A DNA stretch of 64,000 nt from an uncultured Clostridia bacterium. GTDB lineage: Bacteria; Bacillota; Clostridia; Oscillospirales; Acutalibacteraceae. The translations under genes were made by a program, and so were the position numbers. The DNA is taken from positions 160,385 through 224,384 of the forward strand of contig CALHND010000005.1 of assembly GCA_938034875.1 (NCBI GenBank), in the 5' to 3' direction. The notes under the pieces are model-generated. The model was not told the origin of the DNA. It saw only the letters and a list, made by a program, of their open reading frames with translations, and searched no databases. Positions within the stretch are counted from its first letter, which is position 1, and the number at the start of each line of letters is the position of its first letter. This document shows positions 17,265-63,864 of the stretch, one piece after another.

Positions 17265-17277
17265 GAGTAATTCTCCT

Positions 17278-19350: not shown

Positions 19351-19367
19351 TTTATACTACCTCTCCC

Positions 19368-27676: not shown

Positions 27677-27804
27677 TATGAATCTCCTATCAAAACGAAT
27701 AAATATTTATGTACACATCCCATCAACAAGAGAGTGATGGGATGTGTTTTACAATTTAATTTTCACGATTGAAATCTATACCGTAAACAACTGGACAAAT
27801 TTAT

Positions 27805-48272: not shown

Positions 48273-49664
48273 TCATTTTATTTGGCCTAATACATCCTCA
48301 ATATTCGCAACAATTCCATAATCGGCATACTCAAATAACGTCGCATCTTTGTCAGGGTTTATAGCGATAACCGTGCCCGACTGTTGCATACCGACAATAT
48401 GGTGAACCGCTCCCGATACGCCTATTGCAATATATACCGGCGGACTTACTGTTTTCCCGGTAAGTCCCACCTGTAAGCTATACGGCAGGATATTGTTATC
48501 AACTGATTTTCTCGTGGTTGACATATTGGCACCAATTTGATCAGCAAATGCCTTAATTTTTTCAAGACTATCTTTAGCACCCCAACCTGCCGCAACAACA
48601 ATATCTCCGCTGTTTTGAGTTGTTCTTACGGTTGCCATCGCAGGTATGGTAACACTTTCTATTTTTGCAATTATACTGCCCGAAAGCGCAGGACGGTACA
48701 TATACAAAGATTTTCCGTCGGTTTCGAGCAATGTGCAGTCTGCACAAAGACCTAATCCGAGTTTAGCGGCAACCTGCGCCGATAATTTTTTAGAGAGAGC
48801 ATCGCTACCCCAAAGCACAGCGTTTGGTTTAAACTCGGTTATTTTTTCGGCCAACTCATCCGCATTGCCAATAGGCAACACGGTTATATCATCGCTTATT
48901 GTCTCGGCAAAACTTCGCGGAGTCTCTCCAACTATACATACTTTGGAAAGCTTTGTATCTGAGCTGTTTAAAACCTCAACCTTTTCTCTGTCTTTTTTAA
49001 GTCCCGCGTCGATAGCATTTTGCAGTTCGGAAAATGAAATGAACTTGCATTTTCTTTTGCCCGATTCGTTATTAAAGGTTTTTAAAACCCTTGTAGGCGA
49101 GCCTTTAAGACCACATTTTTCCTCTTCTGCGCCAATATCGCAAGCATTCCAAACCTCTACCTCACCTATTTTTGAAAAAATACTTGGTAGTCTTAAATTA
49201 TTTATTCTTTCTATGGTAAGTAGTGCCGGCAGTGTAACTGTTTGGTTGCCCATATCTCGTGTGGTGCAGCTAACGCTCTCACCTATTTCATTAATACTCA
49301 TAACATTGGTTATAAGACTTGTGTTTGCCATTACTGAAAGCATAATTCCAGTCTGTGCGGTATCTCCGACAAGGGTCTGTCTTCCGCAGAAAATAAGATC
49401 AGGTTTTATTTTTTTTACCGCCAAAGACAAGGCATATGCGGTAGCAATCGTATCCGCACCCGCAAAGGCCTTATCTGATAAAAGTATAGCATTTTTAGCA
49501 CCAAGGCGGGTCAATTTCAAAAGAAAATCCTTTACAGTTAGCGGACCCATGCTAATAATTACAACCTCGGCATTTTTTATTTTTAAAGCCGCCTCGTACG
49601 CGCAGGCATCAAATAGATTAATTTCACCGTCAATTCCCTGACGAATACAAACAAGTATTTTCAT
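48273..49664 (-). CDS. fused electron transfer flavoprotein beta-alpha (EtfB-EtfA single polypeptide)
   Basis: The N-terminal ~200 aa are EtfB-like (KILVCIRQG ... PDLIFCGRQ ... GLKGSPT). The C-terminal ~260 aa are EtfA-like with the FAD-binding region PPVYIAIGVSGAVHHIVGMQQSGTVIAINPDKDA. Confidence 0.75.
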   Translation of the reverse strand: MKILVCIRQGIDGEINLFDACAYEAALKIKNAEVVIISMGPLTVKDFLLKLTRLGAKNAILLSDKAFAGADTIATAYALSLAVKKIKPDLIFCGRQTLVGDTAQTGIMLSVMANTSLITNVMSINEIGESVSCTTRDMGNQTVTLPALLTIERINNLRLPSIFSKIGEVEVWNACDIGAEEEKCGLKGSPTRVLKTFNNESGKRKCKFISFSELQNAIDAGLKKDREKVEVLNSSDTKLSKVCIVGETPRSFAETISDDITVLPIGNADELAEKITEFKPNAVLWGSDALSKKLSAQVAAKLGLGLCADCTLLETDGKSLYMYRPALSGSIIAKIESVTIPAMATVRTTQNSGDIVVAAGWGAKDSLEKIKAFADQIGANMSTTRKSVDNNILPYSLQVGLTGKTVSPPVYIAIGVSGAVHHIVGMQQSGTVIAINPDKDATLFEYADYGIVANIEDVLGQIK

Positions 49665-49665
49665 A

Positions 49666-51135
49666 TTATCTCTCACTGTATATAGGTGCTAATGCATCGT
49701 GTATCTTCTTATAAACTTCGAATACCTTACGATATTTAGGTGTATTTTCGGGGTTTGGATATGTGATATCAGCCTGTTTCACACACTTTAGAACTGCGTC
49801 TTCCGCATCCTTAAATACTCCTGACGCAATACCTGCAAGCATAGCCGAACCAAAAGAAGAGTCACTGCTTTCGGTAGTTTTAAGAGCAATACCTAAAGTA
49901 TCGGCAATCATTTGACGCCAAAGTTTACCCTTTGTACCACCACCGATGGAGGTTGCCACCGAATTATAAGGTATATTAAGACTATCAAGGTAAATCTTAC
50001 TGTCAAGTAAAGAATATGCCACGCCCTCTAAAACAGCCCTTGTAAAATGCGCCTTAGTGTGGGTAGCACGAACGCCAGTAAAACTTCCGCAAAGCATTGG
50101 GTCGGCATAAGGAGTTAATTCGCCATTTAAATATGGATGAAAAATCATACCATCACATCCAATAGGAAGTTTAGCAGCTTCGTCATCAAGTACTTTGTAA
50201 TCTCCTCCGAAGGTATCTCTATACCAACGATAGGATGATGCGCAAGATTTTGTAGCAGTACCCGGATACCAAAGTCCCTCTGCAATATGGGAATAGTTCA
50301 CCAAATGTCTATCAGGATAAGGCTTATCTGTAATAACACAAATTCTACCTGCTGTTGCAAGTTTTACCGTTACATCACCTTTTTTAACTGCACCACTTGC
50401 GAAAACCTCCATAACAGTATCAGTTGTACCGCAAACAACAGGTGTGCCAACCTTTAAGTTTGTGGCTTTTGCCGCTTTTTCGGTTACATTACCAATAATA
50501 TCAGTAGGCTTTACAATGGGCGGAAGCATATCTGGTGTTATGCTCGCAAGAGCACAAAGTTCACTATCCCACTGCATTTTATTGCAATCAAACAGCATAC
50601 TGCCCTCTGCTTCAATAAAATCAGTGCAGAAAACATCTGTTAAAAAGTAACGAACATAATCCTTTTCAAAAAATATGTAGCTTACCTGTTCAAACATTTG
50701 GGGTTCGTTCGCCTTAAGCCATATAAGTTGAGGAAGGGTCCAGATAGTATCAGGCTTATGAAATGTTATTTTAAATATGTCTTCTCCTAATTTTTCTCTT
50801 AACTTATCCGCTTCAGCTCGGCTTCTTGTATCGGTCCAATGAATAGCGTTTCTGAGCGGTTTAAAATTTTTATCACATACAATAGATGTGTGTGTGGCAG
50901 AGTCAAGTGCGACAGCCAAAATATCCCCTGCATCTATACCGCTTTTAGAAAGCAACGACTTACTGTTTTCGCAAAGAGCTTCAATCCAATGTTGAGGGTT
51001 TTGCTCGCAGGCGCCGTTTTCAGGATAAAGCGTTGGATATTCTACAGTATTTTCAGCAATAATACTGCCGTTTGTATCAATAAGCGTTGCCTTTGAAGCT
51101 CCGCCGCCAAAATCTATGCCTAAAAGGTATTTCAT
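49666..51135 (-). CDS. FGGY family carbohydrate kinase
   Basis: N-terminal LGIDFGGGASKATL and C-terminal GGG motif (ATSIGGGTKGKLWRQMIADTLG); 489 aa. Confidence 0.8.
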   Translation of the reverse strand: MKYLLGIDFGGGASKATLIDTNGSIIAENTVEYPTLYPENGACEQNPQHWIEALCENSKSLLSKSGIDAGDILAVALDSATHTSIVCDKNFKPLRNAIHWTDTRSRAEADKLREKLGEDIFKITFHKPDTIWTLPQLIWLKANEPQMFEQVSYIFFEKDYVRYFLTDVFCTDFIEAEGSMLFDCNKMQWDSELCALASITPDMLPPIVKPTDIIGNVTEKAAKATNLKVGTPVVCGTTDTVMEVFASGAVKKGDVTVKLATAGRICVITDKPYPDRHLVNYSHIAEGLWYPGTATKSCASSYRWYRDTFGGDYKVLDDEAAKLPIGCDGMIFHPYLNGELTPYADPMLCGSFTGVRATHTKAHFTRAVLEGVAYSLLDSKIYLDSLNIPYNSVATSIGGGTKGKLWRQMIADTLGIALKTTESSDSSFGSAMLAGIASGVFKDAEDAVLKCVKQADITYPNPENTPKYRKVFEVYKKIHDALAPIYSER

Positions 51136-51408
51136 TTTAAATATCCCTTTCTAAAATAAATATAGAAAACATAATCGAAATTGTTATAAACATTAAATTT
51201 CATATTAAGCCATAAAGATAAGCAATACAAGCATCTGATTTATTTAGAACGCAGAACACCCACTCGGTTTCGTTGTAATCGAGACTTTTAAGCTCTGCAC
51301 CAATCTTAATAATTATTGCTGTTATAAATTTGATTTTATTGTAATTATAATACTACCTATTTTAGCACAATAGAGATATGCAAAAAAGCATATCTCTATT
51401 TTTATTTT

Positions 51409-52215
51409 TTATCTGTGTACTATCCAGTCGTGTTCGGGGTCGTTACTGCGGTTAAAGCCCTGATAATCGCCCGCCATAATCCATAAGAAATAGCTATTAT
51501 AACCGGGGGTGGCAACAGTGGTGTGGTAACCGTATGGGAATTCAACCAATTCGTCATTCTTAACTCTGTAAGCCTCATCAATTTTGCCGTCTGCGGTATA
51601 AAGGCACTGCACAGCAAAACCCTGCTTGGGGTCAAACAGGAAGTAGTAAATTTCTTCTGCGATACACTCGGTAGGCATTTTGTCCTCATCATGTTTATGG
51701 GGCGGGAAACCTGCCCAGTTACCTTCGGTACAAAAGCACTCACCAATAGTAAGTACTTTAGCGTTAGAATTTCCATCAATAAGGAAACTGGTCTCTCTTT
51801 CAAAAGGCTGCGTACCCAAAACCTTTAATACAGCATGGTCTTCACGAAGAACTTGAGGCTCGGTCTTCTCTGAAACAGGAGTACCGCATACAGCAATCTT
51901 AATATGGTCAATTGCCTCTATTACCAATTCTTGCTCGCGGGGCATATAAAAACTTTCAGCCTTACGGTTTTCAAAGACCGACATTCTTGTACCTACATTT
52001 TTGTAGGTTTCGTCGTTTACATCTACATTGCAATGACCTTCGAGCATAATAAATGCAAATTCCTTGTCCTCAGTATAAAACGATAATTTCTGTCCTGCAT
52101 CAAGTTCGATTATACCAAACTCAAGTTTTTTCAAAGAACATTCACCTATTTTGCATACAGGAGTATATCCGTTTGTAGGTACATAAGTCTTTTTATAATT
52201 ATAACTCATAACCAT
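51409..52215 (-). CDS. iolB: 5-deoxy-glucuronate isomerase
   Basis: Strong similarity to Bacillus IolB: NVGTRMSVFENRKA, EGNWAGFPPHKHDEDKMPTE, NDPEHDWIVHR. 268 aa. Confidence 0.8.
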   Translation of the reverse strand: MVMSYNYKKTYVPTNGYTPVCKIGECSLKKLEFGIIELDAGQKLSFYTEDKEFAFIMLEGHCNVDVNDETYKNVGTRMSVFENRKAESFYMPREQELVIEAIDHIKIAVCGTPVSEKTEPQVLREDHAVLKVLGTQPFERETSFLIDGNSNAKVLTIGECFCTEGNWAGFPPHKHDEDKMPTECIAEEIYYFLFDPKQGFAVQCLYTADGKIDEAYRVKNDELVEFPYGYHTTVATPGYNSYFLWIMAGDYQGFNRSNDPEHDWIVHR

Positions 52216-53110
52216 TCTCCTTTAAGAATTTCTTAGTAGTATCAAAATCGGGTGCACTTTCACGAGCGCCAACACCGGTACACTTAAGTCCTGATACCGC
52301 ACTTGAGAAATGACAGCATTTAAGGTAATCATAACCCTTTACAACCGCTGCCGCAAATGCGCCGTGAAACACATCGCCCGAACCATTCGAATCTACAACA
52401 ACAACAGGATAAATTGGGTACGAGGTGGTTTCCTTGCCGTCATAAATGATGCCGCCTTTTTTACCTTGTGTTATTACAACAACTTCAGGATTATAGGTTT
52501 CATATAATTTTTTAGCCGCTTCTTCAACAGTTTTGCAACCCGTATGACCAAGCGAAAACTCCTCGGACGGAATCATAATATCAGTGAGAGCCAACAATCT
52601 CTCAACGCCCTCATAAAGTCCGCCGCAGTCATAAAGTACCTTTGTGCCATTTTCCCTTGCGATTTTAGCACCGTCAACAGCAGCATTCATTTCGTTGCCG
52701 TCAACCATAAGTATCTCGGCATCGCGAATAGCCTGCTTTCCAGCATCGTTCAGCTCTAAAGGCGGCAAATTGCCCTTATCAAAAACGCAGGTACGGCTTG
52801 TGCTGTCTGCACAAAGCCAAAGCACCGATGCAAAGGAACGATAACCTGATTTTACATCAATGTACTTTGTTTCAACGCCGTATTTTTCAAGATCCTCTTT
52901 AAGAAATTTACCGCCGTTATCGTCAGATAAAACACCGATATATGCAGTATCCTCACCTAACTTTTGAGCCGCTACAAGTCCGGTAGCAGTAGGGCCGCCG
53001 CCAGCAGTTTTGCTGGCGGTGGCTCTCATTTTTGTATCTTCAGTTGGGTAAGTAGGAATATTGTAAAGGGTATCAAAAACATTAGCACCTATTCCAACTA
53101 TTTTAACCAT
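52199..53110 (-). CDS. PfkB family sugar kinase (IolC/KdgK-like)
   Basis: Ribokinase-family motifs (GGGPTATG ... DSNGSGDVFHGAFAAA). Start at MVKIVGIG. Confidence 0.75.
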   Translation of the reverse strand: MVKIVGIGANVFDTLYNIPTYPTEDTKMRATASKTAGGGPTATGLVAAQKLGEDTAYIGVLSDDNGGKFLKEDLEKYGVETKYIDVKSGYRSFASVLWLCADSTSRTCVFDKGNLPPLELNDAGKQAIRDAEILMVDGNEMNAAVDGAKIARENGTKVLYDCGGLYEGVERLLALTDIMIPSEEFSLGHTGCKTVEEAAKKLYETYNPEVVVITQGKKGGIIYDGKETTSYPIYPVVVVDSNGSGDVFHGAFAAAVVKGYDYLKCCHFSSAVSGLKCTGVGARESAPDFDTTKKFLKENGYEL

Positions 53111-53114
53111 ATTT

Positions 53115-53954
53115 TTATGCCTTTCCGTCTGCACCGACCAACTCAATTCTTGAAATACAGAAATCCCTAACGGCCTCAATAGGCGCTTTCATAAAGTTAT
53201 CAATAGCAATTGCTCTATCAGGTTTTTTTAGTTCTTCAAAACAGCAATCAAGAAAAGCATAGCAAATATCGGTTGCAAAATTCATTTTGCGAATACCCGC
53301 CTTAACTGCCTTTTTGATTTCCTCATCAGGGACACCCGAACCACCATGCAAAACAAGGGCGGTATTATCGGTAGCCTTTCTAATAGCCTCAATTCGCTCA
53401 ATATCAAGTTTGGGGGGCTTGGAATACTTGCCGTGAGCGGTGCCTACAGCAACAGCCAGACAAGCAACGCCTGTTTCTTCTACAAATTTCTTTGCATCCT
53501 CAGAAGTTGTAAACTCGTCCATATTGGTATCGGCAGTTGTTCCTACGTGACCTAATTCACCCTCAACCTGAACATCCACAAACTTGCAGGTCTCAACAAC
53601 ACGCTTTGTAAGAGCAATGTTCTCCTCAAAGGGGAGTGTTGAACCGTCAAGCATGATGCCTGTAGCACCGTAACGCAAGGAACGGGTTGTTTCAAGCTCG
53701 GAAGGACCGTGGTCGAGATGGAAGCAGACCGGAACACTTGCTCTTTTTGCAGCAGCAAGAATAACGGGAGATAAATAATATCCCGTTTCTTCCTTCATAA
53801 GTCGCGGGTAAACCTGCATAATGATAGGAGCTTTTTTCTCCTCGGCAGCTTTTATAACACCCATTGCGCTTTCCATGTTATATACATTAAAAGCAGGGAT
53901 ACAAAAGCTACCCTTTTCGGCTAAATCAAGTACATATTTTAAGTTGACTAACAT
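53115..53954 (-). CDS. class II fructose-bisphosphate aldolase family protein (IolJ/GatY-like)
   Basis: IPAFNVYNME ... FHLDHG ... ALVLHGGSG; 279 aa. Confidence 0.8.
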   Translation of the reverse strand: MLVNLKYVLDLAEKGSFCIPAFNVYNMESAMGVIKAAEEKKAPIIMQVYPRLMKEETGYYLSPVILAAAKRASVPVCFHLDHGPSELETTRSLRYGATGIMLDGSTLPFEENIALTKRVVETCKFVDVQVEGELGHVGTTADTNMDEFTTSEDAKKFVEETGVACLAVAVGTAHGKYSKPPKLDIERIEAIRKATDNTALVLHGGSGVPDEEIKKAVKAGIRKMNFATDICYAFLDCCFEELKKPDRAIAIDNFMKAPIEAVRDFCISRIELVGADGKA

Positions 53955-53956
53955 AA

Positions 53957-55042
53957 TTATTCACCTAAAATCAAATCTTCGATTGAGATGATTTCAATAT
54001 CTTCAGCCACAGCCTTGAGTGATACATACTCACCAACACAAGCTGTTACTATTGTGTTTGCACCGATGCTCTTTGCATTAAAAATTCTTCTCTTTGCAAC
54101 AAGCTTTACAACCTCGGGCATATACTGTGCCATCAGGATATTACCTGCCCAAACGGTTTCTGCACGATTGAGAAGCATTTCGCCGAGCACAGCATAAGAC
54201 ATAATGATTTCTCTTGCCTCTTCGGTTTCCTCAAGGTCACGGGAAAGCTGATAAGGATCCTGGAAAACAACATCCTTGTAGCTGTTTTCAGCCTTTAACT
54301 TTCCATCCTTAATAAGAGCGGCAACAAAGGAAGTATATGTAACAACATTTGCATTTACTTCGATGCCATACTCTTTATATAGCTGCTTTATAGCCTTTGC
54401 ATCGTTGGGGTCGTAAACCACAACGGTCTTAAACTCGCCCAAGGTCTTTGCGCAAGCTTCCATTTGAGCCTTTGTTTCGTTAGCTGCGCCGATAAGGAAA
54501 TCAAGCTGAACGCCGCTTGCAGGTTCGTTTTCCAAAACTGTGAATTCTATGCCTGCCTTATCAAGCACCTTTATTGCCTTTTCAGCCTGCTCGCAAGCCA
54601 TGAATTTAGCATCTGCACCCAAGAAAATAAGAGTATCCTTTTTATCGGCATGAGCTTTGATAGCATCGCCCAAGCAAGAGCAGGTTGCAGTTTTGCCGTA
54701 AGCATTGCCTGTTTCAATGCAGTTAGCAACTAATGTATTTATATATTCGGGAAGTTTGCCCTCTAATGCTGCTTGTAATCTGGTTTCCTTAGTAAACATT
54801 ACAGGGTCCCAACCGGTTACACAGTCATGTACGCAAGCGCCGCAGGTGCAGCACTCGTAAATATTATCCATGATTTCCTCGAGTTCCATTGCCTCGCGGT
54901 TTACAAGAGAAATACCAAGTGCTCTTGCTCTTGCTGTATTTCTTTCCTGACCTGTTGCATTACCAATAGGACAAATATGATGGCACATCCAGCAAAAACG
55001 GCAGGAATCAACATGTTGTTTACATTTATTTGACATTATCAT
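53957..55042 (-). CDS. (Fe-S)-binding protein with CCG domains (GlcF/LutA-like)
   Basis: Two ferredoxin-type cysteine clusters (CRFCWMCHHICP and CCTCGACVHDC) followed by Cys-rich CCG-like regions. Confidence 0.7.
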   Translation of the reverse strand: MIMSNKCKQHVDSCRFCWMCHHICPIGNATGQERNTARARALGISLVNREAMELEEIMDNIYECCTCGACVHDCVTGWDPVMFTKETRLQAALEGKLPEYINTLVANCIETGNAYGKTATCSCLGDAIKAHADKKDTLIFLGADAKFMACEQAEKAIKVLDKAGIEFTVLENEPASGVQLDFLIGAANETKAQMEACAKTLGEFKTVVVYDPNDAKAIKQLYKEYGIEVNANVVTYTSFVAALIKDGKLKAENSYKDVVFQDPYQLSRDLEETEEAREIIMSYAVLGEMLLNRAETVWAGNILMAQYMPEVVKLVAKRRIFNAKSIGANTIVTACVGEYVSLKAVAEDIEIISIEDLILGE

Positions 55043-55062
55043 TGTTCTTTACCCCCTATCAA

Positions 55063-56499
55063 TTAAAGACCAAGTTTGAACGGATTCATGATACCGTTGG
55101 GGTCAAGTGTCTTCTTAAGATTTTCAAATACCTGCATTGCAGGGCCGTACTGTTCTTTCATAAGTCTACCAAGTTTAATACCAACACCGTGGTGGTCATT
55201 TACAACACCGCCGTGGGCAAGTGCTGTTCTAACACCGCAAGTCCAGATAGCCTGATGAAGCCTCAGAGCCTCAACCGGATCCTCGGGCACATCCTTACCA
55301 TCAACTATAAAACGGTCATAAATCATCGCTCCCCACTCATACCAGTGTGAGAAGTGAGCAATAAACTTAGCCTGTGGGAAGTTGGTTTCTATAGCTTCTT
55401 TCATAGCCCAGTAGATTTCTTCAATCTTACCGTAAGGAGCAATTGTATCCATAGTACCAAAGCACTGCGGAATATCCATCATATGACCCGGATAGAAGAA
55501 TGTAATCTTTTCCTTCCACCATTTCTCACCATACTCAGAACCTAAGTCCTCAGCACCATATTTAGCAAATGTTTCAAGCAGAATTTTCTCCTCAACATCA
55601 ACCATCTCTTTAACGCCTTCGTAAGCGATGTTCATAAATGCACCCTTACGCTCAACGCCTACTATTTTCTTAATAAGAGAAGCTGTTTCTGCCTCGTCAT
55701 AAAGACGCATAACAGATGGCTTGAATTTCTGTAAAAGTTCGCGTGAAGCCTTAAAAGCAGCTTCCAAATCCTGAAACAGGAAACCGCGGAAGCGTCTGTC
55801 TTCAGGCTGGTCGTATATTCGAATTTGTGCCTTTGTTATAACACCAAGTGTTCCCTCAGAACCGATGAAAATCTGGTTAAGGTCAGGACCTGCAGCGTGC
55901 TTGGGAGCAGAGCAGGTTTCAATGATATCACCATTAGGAAGAACTATCTCCATTTTGAGCACCATATCATCAATTTTACCGTACTTGGTGGAAACAACAC
56001 CGATACCTCTGTGTGCCAAGAAGCCGCCAACAGTGGAGCAAGTAAGCGAAGATGGATAGTGCATTGTAGCCTTACCAACCTCATTTGCCGCCCACTCGAT
56101 ATGCTTATAAATAGCGCCTGTACCGCATTCGATATACATACCCTCTGTGTTAACTTCGTAAATTTTGTTCATTCTTTTGGTGTCAAGAATAATACCACCA
56201 CAAACAGGGATGGCGCCGCCTTGTGTACCGCCGCCGGCACCCCAGGTAGTAACGGGCAATTTGTAGTAGTTAGCAATTTTAACAACCTTTGAAACCTCTT
56301 GTGCATTTTCCGGACAAACAACATACTGTGCCTCGGGCATATGGCAACCACGGTCTGCCCACATACGGGACAGCCAATAATAGTCAACGCTATGTGTTAC
56401 CTTGTCAATCGCTCTTGTTGAACAATTTTCTTTTCCTACTGCATCTTCAAGCTCGGTCAAGATCATTGCAAACAAAAAATCATTCATTTGATACTGCAT
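55063..56499 (-). CDS. FAD-binding oxidoreductase (GlcD / FAD-linked oxidase family)
   Basis: FAD-binding PCMH-type N-terminal domain (VVCPENAQEVSKVVKIANYYKLPVTTWGAGGGTQGG) and the C-terminal FAD-oxidase_C region ending HGVGIKLGRLM. 478 aa. Confidence 0.75.
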   Translation of the reverse strand: MQYQMNDFLFAMILTELEDAVGKENCSTRAIDKVTHSVDYYWLSRMWADRGCHMPEAQYVVCPENAQEVSKVVKIANYYKLPVTTWGAGGGTQGGAIPVCGGIILDTKRMNKIYEVNTEGMYIECGTGAIYKHIEWAANEVGKATMHYPSSLTCSTVGGFLAHRGIGVVSTKYGKIDDMVLKMEIVLPNGDIIETCSAPKHAAGPDLNQIFIGSEGTLGVITKAQIRIYDQPEDRRFRGFLFQDLEAAFKASRELLQKFKPSVMRLYDEAETASLIKKIVGVERKGAFMNIAYEGVKEMVDVEEKILLETFAKYGAEDLGSEYGEKWWKEKITFFYPGHMMDIPQCFGTMDTIAPYGKIEEIYWAMKEAIETNFPQAKFIAHFSHWYEWGAMIYDRFIVDGKDVPEDPVEALRLHQAIWTCGVRTALAHGGVVNDHHGVGIKLGRLMKEQYGPAMQVFENLKKTLDPNGIMNPFKLGL

Positions 56500-56529
56500 T
56501 TCAATTTATCCTTTTACTCAATTTTTTTA

Positions 56530-57933
56530 TTATTTAATGGTTTCATCAACCTTAAGGTTGGGAAAGTATTTGCAAAACTCTTTTATTTCTTTTCTATAGT
56601 CACCCTGAATTTCAACAAAGTGGTGTATATACGGACCATCTATAAGCCTATCTTCTACGGCTGGTAAATCTTTAAATTCACCCCATAAATATGTACCATG
56701 TGTCTGCGGACCTTCGGTAGTATTGCAAACAAGGGGAAGAATCATGTAATTTCCGCTTTCTTGATCTATACGAGCAACGGTATAAATTCCGTCTTTGGCT
56801 CTAAGCCATGCTCGCTGATTTACAAGACGAGCTTTTGTTCCCTCTGCTTTTTCACTTACGGGGAAAGGTCCGCAATGCCAGAGAAGTTCGGCATTTTTAT
56901 TTTCAGGATGACGGACAGTAAACTCACCGAAAAGTGGTCTTCCCTCACCTAATGTAGCACACTTAAGAAGGGCCATAGTCATAGCACAATGCATATCGCT
57001 TTCACATGCAACCATATATCCCATTTCGTTAAGCAAACCATACAGCGCACAAGGAGCAAGGCCGTTAAACATAACTGGGACAGCCGTCCAACATTCTGCC
57101 GAAATAACATCAAGATTGAATTCTTCAAACAGATGCTTATACATAGCTGTCATAGTAGCCATTGGCTTTATGTATTTTGGCGTTAAATCGTCAAGTTCAT
57201 AGTGGGTCAAGAAATACTGCTCATACTCGGCAATCTCATCCGCATAATCGATTTCGGCAGTTTTCATTCTCTGCTCAATAATAGCAAAGTTGATCGGAAT
57301 TATACGAACGCCGAATTTTTCCATTAATTCGCCTTCATTCCAAATAACCGAGAAGAAAGGAGCAGGTCGAGCACCGACCTGACCGATGCGCATACCTTTA
57401 AAGTTTTTCACCATACAAGTAACTCTTACGAAGCTTTCAAAGCCCTCTCTGAATTCAGTACTTTCAACTCTGCAGCAAGGCAGATGAGAGAACGGAATGT
57501 GGTATCTTTGCATTTGACGTGATACTCCGAAAAGTCCACACTGCGAGTCTGTAGGACGCATACCGTCAACATAATACTCATCATCAAGCGGTGCCCACAA
57601 CAGTACAGGTTTACCCAGAGCCTGAGCAATATCGGCAGCAGCCTCTTCATTACCAAAGTTGCAGTTAATAATCATAACTGCATCAACTTTCTCATTTTTA
57701 AAGCGCTCTATAACCTCTTTAGCAGAAGCATCGTCAAAAACAAGATCCTCGATACCAATCCCCTTATTATCAACAAAGCTTACTTTATCGTTTGCAAAGT
57801 TCTCCTCAATGTAATCCACAAATCTTTTGCCGCGCTGTTCCGCAGAATACCATGTAAGAAATGTGCCCCTGGGACGATCGGTAGTGTTACGTCGCATTGC
57901 AACAAGACCGATTTTCACATTGTAATCAAACAT
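56530..57933 (-). CDS. L-fucose/L-arabinose isomerase family protein (short FucI-like)
   Basis: 467-aa cytoplasmic protein with the three-domain aldose-ketose isomerase pattern (KIGLVAM ... VISAECWTA ... MVACESDMHCAMTMALLK). First gene of the operon. Confidence 0.55.
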   Translation of the reverse strand: MFDYNVKIGLVAMRRNTTDRPRGTFLTWYSAEQRGKRFVDYIEENFANDKVSFVDNKGIGIEDLVFDDASAKEVIERFKNEKVDAVMIINCNFGNEEAAADIAQALGKPVLLWAPLDDEYYVDGMRPTDSQCGLFGVSRQMQRYHIPFSHLPCCRVESTEFREGFESFVRVTCMVKNFKGMRIGQVGARPAPFFSVIWNEGELMEKFGVRIIPINFAIIEQRMKTAEIDYADEIAEYEQYFLTHYELDDLTPKYIKPMATMTAMYKHLFEEFNLDVISAECWTAVPVMFNGLAPCALYGLLNEMGYMVACESDMHCAMTMALLKCATLGEGRPLFGEFTVRHPENKNAELLWHCGPFPVSEKAEGTKARLVNQRAWLRAKDGIYTVARIDQESGNYMILPLVCNTTEGPQTHGTYLWGEFKDLPAVEDRLIDGPYIHHFVEIQGDYRKEIKEFCKYFPNLKVDETIK

Positions 57934-58094
57934 TTACACACCCCTTTTGAATATTTTTATATAATTTATATATATAAAATATACCAAAATCAAACACCTT
58001 CCGCAATAGGTTTCCGAAAAATAATTTCATTTTCTTGCTTTTTTTCAAGAATTATGTTAAAATAATGAAAATAATTTTCATATAGAGGTTGCTA

Positions 58095-58934
58095 ATGGAA
58101 TCAATCATACACAAAATAAGATTTATGCATTCACAGATGGGTCCTGCAGAAAAAAAAATCGCTGATTATATACTTGAAAATACTCAAGAAATAATCAGTG
58201 ATTCTATTAGTGATTTTGCAGAAAAATGCTGCTGCGGAGATGCAACGGTCGTCCGCTTTGCTCAAAGATTGGGATTCAGCGGATATCAATCTTTGAAAAT
58301 AGGTATTGCAAGTGAAATCAGCTCTGCATCAAAGGTTAGCAAGGAGATTACTAAAGACGACTCCTGCTTTGATATTTTCAAAAAGCGCATAAGCGATATA
58401 TCGGTATCACTTGCTAACACCGAAACTGTTTTAGATGCAGAAATATTGGAGCTTACCGCCAAAGCCATAATGAAATCTAAAAGAATTGTAGTTTTTGGAT
58501 TAGGCAACTCTGCCGCAATTGCTCAAGATGCTGCACACAAATTTTTAAGACTTGGCTTTAATGCGCAGGCATGTTGCGACAACCATATGCAAGCAATTAT
58601 AGCCACTCATCTTGACCGCGCAAGCGTTGTTATTGGTATTTCGCATTCAGGCTCATCAAAAGATATTGTAGACGCATTAGAGCTTTCAAAAATAGGAGGA
58701 GCTACCACAGTATGTATTACAAACTTTGGCAACTCCCCTATTGTTAAGGCTTGTGATTACTCTTTATTTACTCGAGCAGAAGAAACCCAACACTCCATTT
58801 TGGCAATGAGTTCTCGCATAGCACAGCTTACCATCCTTGACTCAATATATACATATATTGTAGTTAATTCTGATAAACAAGCCGAGCAGGAGATTTATAA
58901 AACCGAATTAGCACTTCAGAATAAAAAATATTAA
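58095..58934 (+). CDS. MurR/RpiR family transcriptional regulator (HTH_6 + SIS domain)
   Basis: HTH MGPAEKKIADYILENTQEII ... SIS domain VVFGLGNSAAIAQDAAHKFLRLG. Divergent from the catabolic operon. Confidence 0.8.
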   Translation: MESIIHKIRFMHSQMGPAEKKIADYILENTQEIISDSISDFAEKCCCGDATVVRFAQRLGFSGYQSLKIGIASEISSASKVSKEITKDDSCFDIFKKRISDISVSLANTETVLDAEILELTAKAIMKSKRIVVFGLGNSAAIAQDAAHKFLRLGFNAQACCDNHMQAIIATHLDRASVVIGISHSGSSKDIVDALELSKIGGATTVCITNFGNSPIVKACDYSLFTRAEETQHSILAMSSRIAQLTILDSIYTYIVVNSDKQAEQEIYKTELALQNKKY

Positions 58935-58940
58935 AGCATT

Positions 58941-61259
58941 TTATAAATCAACCGTTTTAACCGTTACACCGCAATTATCACTCATTGCAGTAAGTTTAAG
59001 TTTTTTCTGTCCATTGGCTACCTTTACTGCAACAAGAATCTTGCCCATGTACATTTTACGCTCTGTGTTTGCCACGTTATTGTGGTCACAGTTATCTGAA
59101 CCGGTACCGACTATTTTTGCTGGTGCCGAAGCTGAAAATTTAACAAACTCACTAGCATCGGGTACTATATTGCCATTTTCATCAAGGCATTCACAGGTGA
59201 ATAAAGCAATATCCTTACCGTTAGCCTCAAATTCATTACATAAAGTAAGGCTTAGCGAAACCGGTTTACCGGTTGTAGTGCGTTTATCCTCTGCCACAAC
59301 GCATCCGTTTATATATCCAATAACCTTAATTTCGCCTGCTTTATACTGAACATTCCACTCACCGTGACCATATTTTTCAATCTGCTTTTTACCTAAGCTT
59401 TCGCCGTTAAGGAAAAGCTCTAGCTCATCACAGTTGGTATAAACAGTTACTAAAACATCCTCACCCTGCATACCCTCAAAATTCCAATGAGGAACGATAT
59501 GTACCATAGGTTCATTTGTCCAATGAGATTTATTTTGATAAAATGCGCCCTTTTTTTGTAAAAACAAATCAAGAGCACCCGATACTGAGCAGATTCTTGG
59601 CCATGCAGCCTCTCCCCTATGTTCTACTGCCGCCCACTGGTAGCAACCGAATACATACGGACGCGCTTTCAGAAATTTATATGTTTTTTCACGTCCTAAA
59701 AACCACTGGTTAGTATCAACATCTTTATCCCTGATTCTATCTTCGCTATTTGTATCGAAATTCCAGTCCCTTGTAGTGCCCGTAGCACAGCACTCCGAAG
59801 AAAACAAAGGTTTATCAGGACTTATTTCGTGAACTTTATCAAAGATATCTAAATTATAATTTATTCCTACAACAGAACAGTCTCCATATATGGTAGATTT
59901 TTCAGGATTCCTTTCCTCAGCAGCAGTAATAAGTCTTGTACGATCAAATTTTCTTATATGTTCGGCTACCGCTTTATGTATCCTACGACCGACATCGGAT
60001 GTGTGGTAAGGCTCCTCGTTGCTGGTTGACCATAATATAACACTTGGGCGATTTCTATCACGCTTGATAAGCGATTCAAGCTGTTCCAACCCCTCTTTTG
60101 TGCTTTCAAACCAACGTGCTTCATCCATGACCAAAAGACCCATTTCATCGCAAGCATCAAGATATGCAGCAGTCTGTTGGTAATGGCTCGTTCTATATCC
60201 GTTGGCGCCCATTTCTTTTATAAGTTTTATTTTGTATTTAGCAATATTATCAGGCACTGCAAGTCCCGTAAGACCAAAATCCTGATGCGCACATACACCG
60301 TTTATAAATGTAGTTTTGCCATTGAGTAATAGCCCTCTGTCAGCCAAAATTTCAACCGTTCTGAAACCAATTCTGGTATAGTTTTCATCAATTTCCTGTC
60401 CGCCCATTTTTAAAATGGTTTTTACGGTATAAAGATTTGGATTATCGCAGTCCCAAAGCAAAGGGTTATGTACAGTTGCGTTATACTTTACGATTGCTTT
60501 ATCACGCGTACAAACAACAGCCTTTCCCTCGCCTGCTGCAACACAATTGCCGTTAGCATCAAGCAGTTGACTTTCTATTGTTACAGCGCTATCAACATAA
60601 CCGGAATTTACAATGGTAGTTTCAAAATTTATCTTCCATGTGTTTTCATCTATTTTCTCATATGGAGCGTACACACCCCAAAGGTCAATGGCTACGGGCT
60701 CGGTAATTGTAAGGTGTACATCGCGGTATATTCCGCCGCCCTGATACCACCAGCCCTCCCATTCCTCTGTATTTACATAGACTGCAATAATATTTTCCTT
60801 ATCATAAAAAACATTATCACTTATATCTATTTCAAAGGTATTATAAGAGGAGAAGTTATGATACATAAGGCAACCGTTGAGATAAACTGTAGACATACCT
60901 GCAATACCATCAAAACGCAGGGTTATTCTCTTGTTTTCACTACCCTCAGGAAGTTTAAAATGATTTCTGTACCAGGCATTATCATAATGAAGAAAGCCAA
61001 GCGCATTATTTTCATCACTTGATAAATCCTGGGCTATTACATAATCATGAGGAACGGTAACTGTTTCCCAACGATCGCTATGAAGCGGTTTTCCACAATA
61101 ATAGGGGTCAGAAGTATCCAGATAGTTATAAGCCGCAGGTCCCGAAAGTTTTCTTTCGGTTTTACTCTGCGTATATATTGGCCCCTTTTGTGTCGGTCTC
61201 GGTACAACTATATCTCCCTTATGAAAAAGCCATTGTGTAAGATTTATTTCGTTACGCAT
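58941..61259 (-). CDS. glycoside hydrolase family 2 protein (beta-galactosidase/beta-glucuronidase-like)
   Basis: GH2 sugar-binding, Ig-like and TIM-barrel order, with the acid/base region WSTSNEEPY and the nucleophile region. 772 aa with no signal peptide. Confidence 0.8.
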   Translation of the reverse strand: MRNEINLTQWLFHKGDIVVPRPTQKGPIYTQSKTERKLSGPAAYNYLDTSDPYYCGKPLHSDRWETVTVPHDYVIAQDLSSDENNALGFLHYDNAWYRNHFKLPEGSENKRITLRFDGIAGMSTVYLNGCLMYHNFSSYNTFEIDISDNVFYDKENIIAVYVNTEEWEGWWYQGGGIYRDVHLTITEPVAIDLWGVYAPYEKIDENTWKINFETTIVNSGYVDSAVTIESQLLDANGNCVAAGEGKAVVCTRDKAIVKYNATVHNPLLWDCDNPNLYTVKTILKMGGQEIDENYTRIGFRTVEILADRGLLLNGKTTFINGVCAHQDFGLTGLAVPDNIAKYKIKLIKEMGANGYRTSHYQQTAAYLDACDEMGLLVMDEARWFESTKEGLEQLESLIKRDRNRPSVILWSTSNEEPYHTSDVGRRIHKAVAEHIRKFDRTRLITAAEERNPEKSTIYGDCSVVGINYNLDIFDKVHEISPDKPLFSSECCATGTTRDWNFDTNSEDRIRDKDVDTNQWFLGREKTYKFLKARPYVFGCYQWAAVEHRGEAAWPRICSVSGALDLFLQKKGAFYQNKSHWTNEPMVHIVPHWNFEGMQGEDVLVTVYTNCDELELFLNGESLGKKQIEKYGHGEWNVQYKAGEIKVIGYINGCVVAEDKRTTTGKPVSLSLTLCNEFEANGKDIALFTCECLDENGNIVPDASEFVKFSASAPAKIVGTGSDNCDHNNVANTERKMYMGKILVAVKVANGQKKLKLTAMSDNCGVTVKTVDL

Positions 61260-61719: not shown

Positions 61720-63864
61720 TTATTTTAAATATTTCTTACGTTTTAATGAAAGAGCGTATACCCCACCAACTGAAATAAAGAGCAATGTTGCCCATAAAAT
61801 CATATTACTATTATCACCAGTTTCAGGACTGTTTGTATTGGGGTTAGCCGGTGTAGATGTTTTAACAACTTCGAACTCTGCATCAGCAGAACCATTAGTT
61901 GAAACAATACTTATTGTATGTTTTCCAACATCAAGTGTTTTAACATAATCCGATTTTAGTATAACAGTTGTACTTCCTTCTTTAAGAATGTACTTATTTG
62001 AAGAAACTTGTTTCCCATCTACTAGGACTTTTTGAAAATCTTTAAAATCAGCATCAGATTTAAATGTTGCTTCTTTTCCTTGTTCAACAGTTTGATTTGC
62101 ACCTTCAACAATTTTCGGATTATCCGCAACAGGCGGGGTTACAGTCTTTAATTCAAGAGCATTGATCGCATCTTCAATAGCTTTTGCATAACTGTTAACT
62201 TCTTCTTGTTCCGTAATATCTTTATCACGAACAACGTTATTAATTGCATTATCTACAGCAGAAAAATCTTTGTAGTCCTCTTTGTTTAATGCATTTGCTT
62301 TACTTATTGCCTTATCTACTTTAGAATAGTCAGCTCGCAATATATATTGTTCATCACATACGGAATACACAAAATTGTTCTTATTAAAATTGTCTACATA
62401 GCTAATCTCAAACTTGGTATATATGCATATCAATTGTTTTGAATCATTGATGATAAAGGAAGGCGATGATGGGAAATTTAGTCTATCTTTATTGTATAGC
62501 TTTTGTGAAAGGGCAACAAAATTTTGTGTTTCAGGTTTAGCATAATAAAAACAAGTATCTTGTTGTTTTATCTCTTGGATATTTCCTTCCCCATCCACCC
62601 ATTTTTCATCATCTGTTTTGGTGTAAGTTTTACCGCCAATATTTATTTGGTTATCATTTGTTTTAAGTGGTTCATACTGAATTGCCGCAATGTACTTTAT
62701 ATCACCATTTTCAGAAACAAAAGAGTACTTCGTATCACCTGTTTTTGACACATCTGCAACTTGTACAGGTGTTAAACCGTCTTTAGCAGAATTGTTTACT
62801 ACATAAATGTTATTTTTATTATAGTAAAACAAACCTGAAATATCAGAATCTATGATTGATGCATTTGATGCACCATCTGTAAGATTAGTTACGACATTTC
62901 CTTTATTGGTAGCCATTTTAATTATGTTATTTTTATACTTATCGGAGTAAAAAGAATAACTTTGTGTAACTACTTTATCAAGCATAATATCAGAAATATG
63001 GGTTTTATCTATCGCCTCTTCAAAGATGGTCGCAATTTTACATCCTGTTTCTTCATGCCTATATTCATAAATAGAGTAGTTTGAAATATAATCGCAATTT
63101 TTTGCAAAAACCATTGGTACAGGGTTTTCACTTGTATTATCTTCATTATTTTCTGAGTAAAAAGCATTTGTTTTAGGATTATAATACAATCCTTCTATTC
63201 CATATGCATTTTTATCATTTTGGGTATTATGACAAACTACCCAAGAAACAAGTATTTTATCGTCAACCTTGGTCACTTTTGGATTATAAGTGCTAATATT
63301 ATCTGAATCATAAAAAGAAGAATTAGAAATAGTGCTTTTAACTTTCATTGGTTCAAAAGCTGCAACAGAAATTCTCATAGCACTTGCTATATCATAGCCT
63401 GTTGATTTTTCATTAAAGCTTTTAGTTGAATCGCTCCATGCAACTAACACATCATCATTTGAATATATAAATGGATGCATATCCCATGTATTATCATCTT
63501 TAATGTATTTTGGAACAGCAAAGTAATTGCCATTATAAACGGAATAGCTAATTTGTGAATAATTGTATTTGTCCAGATCGTAATTGTCCATGGTAAATAC
63601 AAGCAGTTCTTTTTCAACACCGTATGTTTCCGGTAAAGATGCCAGCTTAGTTTCAAAAAAACTAGACGCACCAGTTAGTAATATTGTGTGCGATACATCA
63701 CCATTTTGTGCAAATGATGTTGTAGAAGTAAGACCTATTAATAATGATAGTGATAAAAAGAACGATATTATCCTTAATTTTCTTGGCTTTTTTGTTGTCA
63801 TAATTCCTCCATTTGTTGTTTTCAGGATAAAAAAGATAATCGTTGTCCTGAGTGTTATATCCAT
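61720..63864 (-). CDS. cell-wall anchored surface protein with an SPxTG sorting signal
   Basis: Signal peptide. 714 aa, AT-rich and Asn/Ser/Tyr-rich. The C-terminus is NSPETG, then a hydrophobic helix, then KRKKYLK (SPxTG-type sortase B-like signal, as in Clostridioides). A Big_2-like domain lies near the C-terminus. Confidence 0.55.
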   Translation of the reverse strand: MDITLRTTIIFFILKTTNGGIMTTKKPRKLRIISFFLSLSLLIGLTSTTSFAQNGDVSHTILLTGASSFFETKLASLPETYGVEKELLVFTMDNYDLDKYNYSQISYSVYNGNYFAVPKYIKDDNTWDMHPFIYSNDDVLVAWSDSTKSFNEKSTGYDIASAMRISVAAFEPMKVKSTISNSSFYDSDNISTYNPKVTKVDDKILVSWVVCHNTQNDKNAYGIEGLYYNPKTNAFYSENNEDNTSENPVPMVFAKNCDYISNYSIYEYRHEETGCKIATIFEEAIDKTHISDIMLDKVVTQSYSFYSDKYKNNIIKMATNKGNVVTNLTDGASNASIIDSDISGLFYYNKNNIYVVNNSAKDGLTPVQVADVSKTGDTKYSFVSENGDIKYIAAIQYEPLKTNDNQINIGGKTYTKTDDEKWVDGEGNIQEIKQQDTCFYYAKPETQNFVALSQKLYNKDRLNFPSSPSFIINDSKQLICIYTKFEISYVDNFNKNNFVYSVCDEQYILRADYSKVDKAISKANALNKEDYKDFSAVDNAINNVVRDKDITEQEEVNSYAKAIEDAINALELKTVTPPVADNPKIVEGANQTVEQGKEATFKSDADFKDFQKVLVDGKQVSSNKYILKEGSTTVILKSDYVKTLDVGKHTISIVSTNGSADAEFEVVKTSTPANPNTNSPETGDNSNMILWATLLFISVGGVYALSLKRKKYLK

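Follow-up and report, generated by a model that had tools for sequence, protein, structure and literature searches.

A conserved operon of gut Oscillospirales, possibly for the catabolism of an uncharged aldose, with a potentially new enzymatic step

In sulfoglycolysis of the Embden-Meyerhof-Parnas type (sulfo-EMP and sulfo-EMP2; mutarotase YihR, isomerase SftI/SqvD or YihS, kinase YihV or SqiK, aldolase YihT or SqiA, DUF4867 protein SftX), only half of the sugar is harvested, as dihydroxyacetone phosphate (DHAP), and a C3 aldehyde remains. The same logic, carried by the same protein families, is recognised in one part of an operon located at positions 48273-57933 (minus strand) of a 64,000-nucleotide (nt) stretch of DNA from an uncultured Clostridia bacterium of the Acutalibacteraceae (GenBank assembly GCA_938034875.1, contig CALHND010000005.1, positions 160,385 to 224,384 of the forward strand); this whole stretch is called the window below. 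Other described systems share further features with the operon. In the clostridial XylA-II/DUF4867/XylB operon a FucI-superfamily isomerase, DUF4867 and a XylB-like FGGY kinase likewise stand together (PMC2873477, PMC6158908). Among the myo-inositol enzymes IolB-IolC-IolJ, too, an IolB-family isomerase accompanies a kinase of the PfkB type and a class II aldolase, and the principle is shared: an aldehyde is isomerised, phosphorylated next to the ketone and cleaved to DHAP. The Ldh-EtfAB complex of Acetobacterium woodii (LctBCD; 7qh2), one way in which anaerobes oxidise an alcohol of roughly -190 mV, resembles the redox genes of the operon in its FAD_binding_4/FAD-oxidase_C dehydrogenase, its electron-transferring flavoprotein (ETF) of the bifurcating type and its [4Fe-4S] clusters (PMC9232219). 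Finally, E. coli YdjH/YdjI and mammalian fructolysis (ketohexokinase, aldolase B, triokinase) combine a ketose 1-kinase, an aldolase and an aldehyde that needs its own kinase; their substrates are different, and they have no counterpart of the IolB-like isomerase or of the flavoprotein/ETF unit described here.

The operon is read here, at a probability of roughly 0.4, as a self-contained, regulator-controlled catabolic unit of gut Oscillospirales for an uncharged aldose, built of two modules. It consists of eight co-oriented open reading frames (ORFs), which follow one another on the minus strand between 57933 and 48273. The first encodes an aldose-ketose isomerase of the AraA/FucI superfamily (ISO; 56530-57933, 467 amino acids, aa). 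It is followed by an FAD-dependent dehydrogenase with an alkyl-DHAP-synthase-like active site (FADox; 55063-56499, 478 aa), an Fe-S subunit with an N-terminal 2x[4Fe-4S] ferredoxin domain and a Cys-free GlpC/HdrD-like C-terminal half (53957-55042, 361 aa) and a class II metal-dependent ketose-phosphate aldolase (ALD; 53115-53954, 279 aa; PF01116, 1.8e-85). Next come a YihV-like ketose kinase of the PfkB family, probably a 1-kinase (52199-53110, 303 aa; PF00294), an IolB/KduI-family cupin isomerase, here called IolB-like (51409-52215, 268 aa; PF04962, 3.2e-70), a XylB-like sugar/polyol kinase of the FGGY family (49666-51135, 489 aa; FGGY_N and FGGY_C) and a single-chain ETF with an EtfB-like half, a linker and a shortened EtfA half (48273-49676, ORF of 467 aa; Pfam ETF and ETF_alpha). 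The PfkB start was taken at the ATG at 53110, following the gene call of a related locus (L085), and the ETF is likely to start at the ATG at 49664, which gives a protein of 463 aa identical to P0121. A preliminary description of the region had given the same span, strand, gene order and flanks (an RpiR/SIS regulator and a GH2 glycosidase), all of which were reproduced in the ORF and Pfam scans, and its fused EtfB-EtfA is indeed one chain. It had announced nine genes, although it named only eight, and eight ORFs were counted; it had also put all gaps below 35 nt. In transcription order the junctions measure 30, 20, 2, 4, -17, 273 and 1 nt, the end of the PfkB gene overlapping the IolB-like gene by 17 nt and the long gap falling between the IolB-like and FGGY genes.

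The strongest evidence for a functional unit comes from related loci. When one genome was scanned per species, the isomerase turned out to have 443 relatives, of which the 80 best, 80-93% identical to ISO, were taken with 10-kb flanks; 81 non-redundant related loci were then surveyed by tblastn with the window proteins. The closest relatives are metagenome-assembled genomes from the guts of ruminants and humans, which bear the labels Acutalibacteraceae, Oscillospiraceae, Ruminococcaceae or Clostridia. The full eight-gene set is present in 42 of the 81 loci, another 27 are cut by a contig end, and in a few further loci only the last gene falls outside the 10-kb limit. The genes stand in the order of the window in 35 loci, with the isomerase last in 4 and with the isomerase between IolB and FGGY in 2, and the full gene set is retained through all three orders. 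The flanks of these loci are unrelated, each family being found at most three times in a Pfam census of 89 sampled flanking proteins; together with the preserved gene set this indicates that the cluster acts as an autonomous unit which has been moved between genomic contexts. The operon arrangement is far beyond chance, and the initial view of a non-canonical catabolic operon for an unnamed sugar is borne out: one conserved cluster joins the aldose-ketose isomerase with a pair of kinases, a class II aldolase and a flavoprotein/ETF unit.

The division into two modules is based on reduced versions of the cluster. Of the core eight, the minimal clusters L004/L048, L047 and L053 (names of this kind denote related loci) hold only the isomerase, the aldolase and the PfkB kinase, and L065 holds isomerase, aldolase and DUF4867; DUF4867 is also present in L004/L048 and L047, not in L053. 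The FADox, Fe-S, IolB-like, FGGY and ETF genes are jointly absent from all of these loci. It follows from the minimal clusters that isomerase, kinase and aldolase form a self-sufficient route (module 1), and from the joint absence that the five remaining genes are gained or lost as a unit (module 2). Gene content, conservation and modularity are thus directly established. A further arrangement is found in L056 (3170-14691), where an isomerase 81% identical to ISO belongs to a different gene set, which comprises an FSA/transaldolase-type enzyme, an archaeal-type triosephosphate isomerase and an FGGY kinase other than that of the operon. Two MFS transporters, another but distant FucI-like protein, a peptidase of the M20 family and a GH3 enzyme of the BglX type complete this set. 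In the EMP and transaldolase (TAL) variants of sulfoglycolysis one isomerase is likewise combined either with a kinase and an aldolase or with a transaldolase-type enzyme (PMC12890257), and L056 and the aldolase-type loci parallel this pair.

The 273-nt stretch between the IolB-like and FGGY genes (51136-51408, minus strand) is a deletion scar in a slot which in the relatives is filled by co-oriented accessory genes: an aldose 1-epimerase in 19 loci, DUF4867 in about 31, an AEC/Mem_trans transporter in 13-14 and a mannose-6-phosphate-isomerase-like cupin in 3. In 2 loci an FAD_oxidored protein occurs as well, between PfkB and IolB rather than in this slot. Nucleotides 72-152 of the gap (operon strand) encode residues 5-31 of the relatives' aldose 1-epimerase at 59% identity, and the AEC transporter gene is matched at its 5' end by nucleotides 167-200 and at its 3' end by nucleotides 220-255, so that remnants of ~80 nt of the epimerase, ~35 nt of the transporter start and ~35-60 nt of its end can be recognised. 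These remnants indicate that the lineage of the window has lost the epimerase, DUF4867 and the transporter. Just after the IolB-like gene, at 51369-51400, a conserved stem-loop with a 13-bp stem is found, of which copies 91-95% identical occupy the same position in L009, L018, L022, L035 and L058, though it is non-coding; it has no T-tract on the operon strand and was scored as a terminator only on the opposite strand, and it may serve to process, attenuate or stabilise the transcript. Between the FGGY and ETF genes, 8-9 loci (including L066, L070, L071, L078 and L084) carry genes for a NagB-like deaminase and a NagA deacetylase, the latter passing its equivalog cut-off (247 vs 226) and the former, with 105 bits, remaining below its own.

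ISO had no Pfam match, and Fucose_iso_C (PF02952) was not detected in it at E <= 0.001. Its sole NCBIfam match is the sulfoquinovose isomerase SftI (NF048012; 8.7e-29, 100.5 bits, cut-off 700). When its AlphaFold2 (AF2) model (pLDDT 69) was compared with the PDB by Foldseek, the top 33 matches were L-arabinose isomerases (E 1e-14 to 1e-10), followed by L-fucose and D-arabinose isomerases, with a probability of 1.00 for 41 AraA/FucI/D-arabinose isomerase chains. The earlier label of a FucI-like isomerase therefore holds at the level of the superfamily and its AraA/FucI fold, while the closest structures are AraA and the only profile match is SftI. Residues E311, E337, H353 and H437 are invariant, and their spacing resembles that of what we take to be the metal ligands of AraA. 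Two members of the superfamily have been proven in Firmicutes, the xylose isomerase XylA-II (PMC2873477) and SftI (PMC7491151), and both act on gluco-configured sugars.

The PfkB kinase bears on the nature of the sugar. Its best match in the PDB is the sulfofructose kinase YihV of E. coli (7ag6, 1.3e-35), the next being ribokinase (2e-22). The YihV ligands of the sugar hydroxyls, D13 and S95, are kept together with the catalytic GxGD. In YihV the sulfonate is recognised by the triad K27-N109-R138 (PMC8006165); in all 55 orthologues of the operon kinase these positions read K-D-N, so that the charge-balancing Arg is lost and an Asp is gained. Owing to this directly observed change of the anion pocket, a sulfonate, carboxylate or phosphate is very unlikely as the distal group of the substrate, and the residues would suit a hydroxyl or methyl group, which is more likely, or possibly an amine. 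The proposal of a uronate or another anionic sugar is likewise disfavoured by the Asp and Asn at the anion-binding positions.

The aldolase matches AgaY (2.5e-50), the sulfofructose-1-phosphate aldolases 8q58/8q57 (~4e-48) and YdjI (4e-47) in the PDB, scores 244.8 against TIGR00167 (cut-off 215.6), has D81-H82 conserved and shares its family with the class II sulfofructose-1-phosphate aldolase (PMC10665668). At the position of the Arg of the 'DPR' motif by which fructose- and tagatose-bisphosphate (FBP/TBP) aldolases hold the distal phosphate it has Asp252, with a conserved P-x-R247 five residues upstream. DUF4867, the frequent companion of these genes, is the SftX of sulfoglycolysis clusters, a metal-binding cupin whose commonest partners are FucI-family isomerases and FGGY kinases (PMC11968277). 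As a separate observation, the aldolase genes of L004-L084 fall into two sequence types, ~60-66% and ~80-93% identical to that of the window; both share one position, in loci with neighbouring genes 85-95% identical, and this suggests a replacement of that one gene by recombination.

FADox (Pfam FAD_binding_4, 3.5e-34; FAD-oxidase_C, 9.1e-23) is the most conserved protein of the operon, 91-95% identical in most loci. It had been assigned to the GlcD family, an assignment that needs correction, as its score against TIGR00387 is 195.6 (cut-off 567.9) and its closest solved relative is alkyl-DHAP synthase (ADPS or AGPS; 2uuu, 4bby) at 1.1e-41, followed by D-lactate dehydrogenase (D-LDH, 1.9e-37) and LctD (1.3e-28). 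R265, Y394 and D435-H436-H437 of FADox align with R419, Y578 and the His615-617 (HHH) loop of ADPS; the Arg, the Tyr and the His-His that act on DHAP are therefore kept, and the first His of the loop is replaced by Asp. In ADPS, PDB entries of mutants (R to H in 4bc7, Y to F in 4bca) mark the Arg and Tyr positions, and the ADPS-type residues are retained in every FADox orthologue that covers those columns. The positions of the metal ligands of mouse LDHD read His, Tyr, His in FADox, so that two of the three ligands are missing if those of D-LDH are His-His-Glu, as we take them to be from the literature on LDHD and D2HGDH. With ADPS residues in place and the metal ligands of the D-2-hydroxyacid dehydrogenases missing, a reaction of the lactate or glycolate type becomes doubtful. 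Differences from ADPS are also present: FADox 58-476 aligns with ADPS 139-583 or 208-652, which leaves out the N-terminal domain of ~140-200 residues, and the Fe-S and ETF partners imply net redox chemistry within sugar catabolism, not ether-lipid synthesis. In public data 2,944 sequences, sampled from the guts of humans and ruminants, fall into the 90%-identity cluster of FADox, and one of its members carries the JGI name 'alkyldihydroxyacetonephosphate synthase'. The same cluster lists members of 263-264 aa, one of them named '5-deoxy-glucuronate isomerase', which looks like an oddity of clustering or gene calling and not like biology.

The Fe-S subunit has the Pfam domains Fer4_8 and Fer4_17 and weak NCBIfam matches to TfrB, GlpC, LdhH and DsrK. 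Among 54 orthologues the only invariant cysteines are C14/17/20/24 and C64/67/70/74, that is, two CxxCxxCxxxC motifs; after residue 74 neither an invariant Cys in these orthologues nor a CCG tripeptide or a Pfam CCG match was found. The protein had been taken for a CCG Fe-S protein, yet the cysteines of that half are absent and just two ferredoxin-type four-Cys motifs remain, a pattern which defines it as a two-cluster ferredoxin domain fused to a Cys-free GlpC/HdrD-like domain.

All best PDB matches of the ETF are bifurcating (CarE/CarD, C. difficile Etf, LctB/C, A. fermentans). Its EtfB half scores 1e-25 to 1e-30 against bifurcating EtfB (CarD, LctB, C. difficile, A. fermentans) and 1e-11 to 6e-7 against non-bifurcating EtfB. 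In its AF2 model (pLDDT 76) the folds of EtfB chains and of EtfA chains are both recognised, domain I of EtfA being shortened, and the motif GRQTLVGDTAQTG resembles what is presumably the bifurcating-type motif. By its domains, EtfB-half scores and fold, the protein is thus predicted to be of the bifurcating type; a description of fused bifurcating ETFs exists for another organism (PMC12042025). As to the idea of an oxidase/ETF module like that of lactate dehydrogenases, the kinship of the unit to the electron-confurcating Ldh complex stands, and the lactate- or glycolate-type reaction, in view of the metal ligands, is doubtful. In contrast to Ldh-EtfAB, the operon dehydrogenase has ADPS-type residues in place of the lactate/metal site, a GlpC/HdrD-like subunit of its own carries the Fe-S clusters, EtfB and EtfA are joined in one chain in which domain I of EtfA is shortened, and the whole unit is embedded in a sugar operon.

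The two remaining enzymes of module 2 are assigned less sharply. Enzymes of the IolB and KduI type isomerise a 2-hydroxy-aldehyde to a ketol. The IolB-like protein, which had been called a strong IolB match, does exceed the TIGR04378 cut-off, only narrowly (222.9 vs 205), and in the PDB it matches the 'IolB-like' entry 2qjv at 2.7e-33. The FGGY kinase stands essentially at the threshold of XylB (TIGR01312, 382.9, cut-off 380.25), far below those of GlpK (149.7, cut-off 590) and of E. coli-type PRK15027 (206.5, cut-off 912), and its PDB matches to xylulokinase (3.5e-54) and gluconate kinase (1.7e-53) are nearly equal.

From these assignments a pathway may be proposed. The sequence of module 1, aldose to ketose to ketose-1-phosphate to DHAP and a hydroxy-aldehyde, is well supported by homology and modularity. 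An aldose 1-epimerase, whose gene has been deleted in the window, would act on the aldose first; the isomerase would convert it to the 2-ketose, the YihV-like kinase would phosphorylate the ketose at C1, and the class II aldolase would cleave the ketose-1-phosphate to DHAP and a hydroxy-aldehyde. DUF4867, likewise deleted in the window, would assist this route. The sugar may be a gluco- or fructo-configured hexose, a 6-deoxyhexose or a pentose. More specific schemes, with galactosylglycerol, hexitol phosphates, tartronate semialdehyde, a conversion of glyceraldehyde to DHA or one of lactaldehyde to acetol phosphate, were weighed as candidates. Module 2 would serve to recover the second half of the sugar rather than to excrete it, and what it processes is probably an aldehyde or a polyol phosphate. 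The IolB-like cupin could isomerise the left-over 2-hydroxy-aldehyde to a ketol, and the XylB-like kinase could phosphorylate this ketol or a related polyol, giving a product whose end, CO-CH2-O-P or CHOH-CH2-O-P, might be recognised by an active site of the ADPS type. FADox would then carry out a two-electron step at a DHAP/glycerol-3-phosphate-like centre, for example the oxidation of the glycerol-3-phosphate-like form, and the electrons would pass through the 2x[4Fe-4S] subunit to the single-chain ETF of bifurcating type and on to NAD/ferredoxin or another flavoenzyme. With a potential near -190 mV for such a centre, coupling to an ETF would be sensible in a fermenter, as it is for lactate (PMC9232219). 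The RpiR-type regulator, as a probable sensor of sugar phosphates, would control the route. Inferred here are the sequence of the steps, the position that each kinase phosphorylates, the way in which electrons run, the substrates of the IolB-like protein and the flavoprotein, and the kind of sugar.

Several observations weigh against this reading. The IolB-like protein passes the cut-off of the IolB equivalog, and there is the overlap between its gene and the end of the PfkB gene. The FGGY kinase lies just past the XylB cut-off, and this, with the clostridial xylose operon in mind, means that ISO and FGGY might belong together. The conserved Arg247 near the distal pocket of the aldolase keeps possible a ketose bisphosphate made by the two kinases. 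The role given to the flavoprotein would follow from a residue pattern and from analogy, most loci have neither a dedicated transporter nor a conserved glycosidase, and the NagA and NagB-like genes found inside some operons have no evident place in the pathway.

A more specific version of module 2, which is considered improbable, is that both halves of a 6-modified or 6-deoxy hexose are salvaged through a DHAP analogue and ADPS-like flavin chemistry. The IolB-like protein and the FGGY kinase would in this case turn X-CH2-CHOH-CHO into X-CH2-CO-CH2-O-P, a 1-substituted or 1-deoxy analogue of DHAP. By covalent flavin-N5 chemistry FADox could then remove or replace X, or it could oxidise a glycerol-3-phosphate-like precursor; the product would be DHAP, and electrons would be exchanged through the Fe-S subunit and the single-chain bifurcating-type ETF. 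If true, the ADPS family would gain a new type of reaction, and sugar catabolism a new kind of step coupled to an ETF.

Among the alternative explanations of the whole cluster, a D-xylose operon survives best, unlikely as it is. ISO would be an isomerase of the XylA-II type with DUF4867 as its companion and FGGY a xylulokinase, while PfkB and ALD would form a side route by way of xylulose-1-phosphate to DHAP and glycolaldehyde, and the flavoprotein and Fe-S subunit would act like GlcD/GlcF on a C2/C3 product. Xylose is abundant in these habitats, FGGY does pass the XylB equivalog cut-off, and DUF4867 directly precedes FGGY in many loci, with the epimerase in 19. A FucI-family XylA-II beside XylB has been proven experimentally in C. 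acetobutylicum (PMC2873477), and C. saccharobutylicum depends on an xylB/FSA/TK/DUF4867/FucI operon to grow on xylose (PMC6158908). Nevertheless, where a set of the XylA-II type adjoins, in L056, ISO is 21% identical to its FucI-like protein and the two FGGY kinases are 28% identical to each other. ISO forms a distinct, highly conserved subfamily. It also occurs without FGGY, in the minimal clusters, and the operon has five further enzymes, including the second kinase and the aldolase. In a xylose pathway the two kinases would compete for one ketose, an aldehyde dehydrogenase to make glycolate is missing, FADox has no hydroxy-acid metal site and the IolB-like protein would have no role with glycolaldehyde.

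The inositol-type model put forward in the preliminary description is held to be quite unlikely. According to it a deoxy-sugar or uronate enters 5-deoxy-glucuronate-like chemistry and is degraded by IolB, IolC and IolJ to DHAP and malonate semialdehyde, with a GlcD-type oxidase and ETF. IolC and IolJ belong to the PfkB and PF01116 families, the genes for ALD, PfkB and the IolB-like protein follow one another directly, at 4 and -17 nt, and the IolB-like protein passes TIGR04378 (222.9 vs 205). That IolB-IolC-IolJ form the core is contradicted by the kinase, which reaches only 97.6 bits against the IolC equivalog TIGR04382 (cut-off 300) and to which YihV is closer than other solved kinases by 13 orders of magnitude; the residues that would face an anionic tail are invariantly Asp and Asn. 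Moreover, kinase and aldolase travel with the AraA/FucI-like isomerase, also without IolB in the minimal clusters, and no enzyme of the cluster is able to make a 5-deoxy uronate. The upper inositol genes had been said to be missing, and this is correct: families of the iolG, iolE and iolD type are absent among 20 further ORFs of the window that were scanned and among the core and accessory gene clusters of the related loci, and in the families shown for the flanks of the latter the only IolE-type match is to AP_endonuc_2, a broad family seen in 2 of the 89 proteins sampled. Supply of a uronate by the neighbouring GH2 enzyme as a beta-glucuronidase was rejected, since this enzyme scores as a GalA-type beta-galactosidase and adjoins the cluster in 3 loci only, and the kinase pocket is not cationic.

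A variant of sulfoglycolysis is very improbable. In it sulfoquinovose (SQ) would be converted to sulfofructose, sulfofructose-1-phosphate and then DHAP and sulfolactaldehyde, and module 2 would process or desulfonate the C3 sulfonate. It is true that the nearest characterised relatives are SftI for ISO, YihV for PfkB, the class II sulfofructose-1-phosphate (SFP) aldolases for ALD and SftX for DUF4867, and that Acutalibacteraceae and Oscillospiraceae are major carriers of yihQ in the rumen (PMC13219744). The sulfonate triad K-N-R is however K-D-N in 55 of 55 kinase orthologues, ISO reaches ~100 bits where SftI demands 700, and neither a GH31 sulfoquinovosidase nor a TauE-type exporter appears in the families listed for the flanks that were sampled, or in the gene clusters conserved across the related loci. 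Sulfoquinovose was rejected as the substrate because of this triad and of the absent GH31 enzyme and exporter. The operon further differs from sulfo-EMP in having no sulfolactaldehyde reductase or dehydrogenase, the aldehyde being handled, as proposed, by the IolB-like isomerase, the FGGY kinase and the flavoprotein/ETF. That a set of sugar isomerase, kinase and aldolase genes and a lactate-type dehydrogenase with its ETF are two unrelated transcription units merely standing side by side is scarcely credible: the 273-nt gap, the stem-loop and a weak promoter-like site do split the IolB-like gene from FGGY-ETF in the window and the flavoprotein and Fe-S genes are missing from the minimal clusters, but the gap is a deletion scar where relatives have co-oriented genes, the redox genes are interleaved with the sugar genes (FADox and Fe-S between ISO and ALD, ETF at the far end), and the full set persists in 42 loci through three gene orders.

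The two-module catabolic unit appears to be under its own control. RpiR/SIS regulators as a family typically sense sugar phosphates, and such a regulator (58089-58934, plus strand; Pfam HTH_6 1.3e-21, SIS 3e-23) is divergent from the cluster in the window and in 41 related loci; a regulator cluster of the AraC type is found in 28. In the control region between regulator and operon (57934-58088), compared in an alignment of 24 RpiR-type intergenic regions, the palindrome ATGAAAATTATTTTCAT at 58065-58081 is present in 21 of the 24, occurs once in the window and may act as an operator. A second, related site, TGAAATTATTTTTCG, lies at 58015-58029, an extended -10-like element, TGGTATATT, at 57978-57986 and a ribosome-binding site at 57939-57948. 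A search of 47-62 kb of the window against Rfam gave zero matches to RNA elements, and a scan for terminators and promoters gave no more sites than in shuffled sequence.

Beyond the regulator lies the GH2 gene (58941-61259, minus strand; GH2 domains and DUF4982), whose product is beta-galactosidase-like (NCBIfam GalA, 711.6 bits, cut-off 900) and only weakly associated with the cluster, as it adjoins it in 3 related loci. The neighbouring glycosidases vary by locus (GalA-like GH2, a GH30 resembling beta-1,6-glucanase, BglX-like GH3), and no enriched transporter or glycosidase was found in the sampled flanks of the related loci. Downstream of the operon an unrelated MerR/TipAS gene follows. Elsewhere in the window, three adjacent genes for surface proteins lie at 15834-21557 (minus strand), one of them with a cohesin domain (476 aa) and the other two (690 and 729 aa) large BspA-type leucine-rich-repeat proteins with C-terminal type I dockerins; these cohesin and dockerin genes suggest a cellulosome-like assembly at the cell surface of this gut Clostridium. 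Just beyond GH2, at 61720-63864 (minus strand, G+C 0.30), a 714-aa protein with an N-terminal signal-like segment, a C-terminal hydrophobic anchor and no Pfam match is encoded, and two ORFs of 443 and 460 aa without a Pfam match occupy 26345-29187 (minus strand) in a low-G+C part (0.32).

All protein families of the operon are known; new with respect to the searched literature are their combination, the ADPS-like flavoprotein with Fe-S subunit and single-chain ETF, and the altered kinase of the YihV type. In a full-text literature search no paper was found on the cluster, on a fused ETF with an FAD-linked oxidase or on ADPS with ETF in anaerobes, and public annotations of these proteins read only 'hypothetical', 'L-fucose isomerase-like', 'FAD-binding oxidoreductase/protein' or 'alkyldihydroxyacetonephosphate synthase'. 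The locus can therefore be described as a catabolic operon with a potentially new enzymatic step. Relatives of its isomerase occur in at least 443 species-level genomes, and naming the sugar would fill a gap in the understanding of how uncultured Oscillospirales feed in the gut. With the redox unit, ETF-coupled oxidation, possibly of the electron-confurcating kind, would reach beyond lactate and acyl-CoA to a step within a carbohydrate pathway, and a bacterial relative of ADPS would receive its first redox role.

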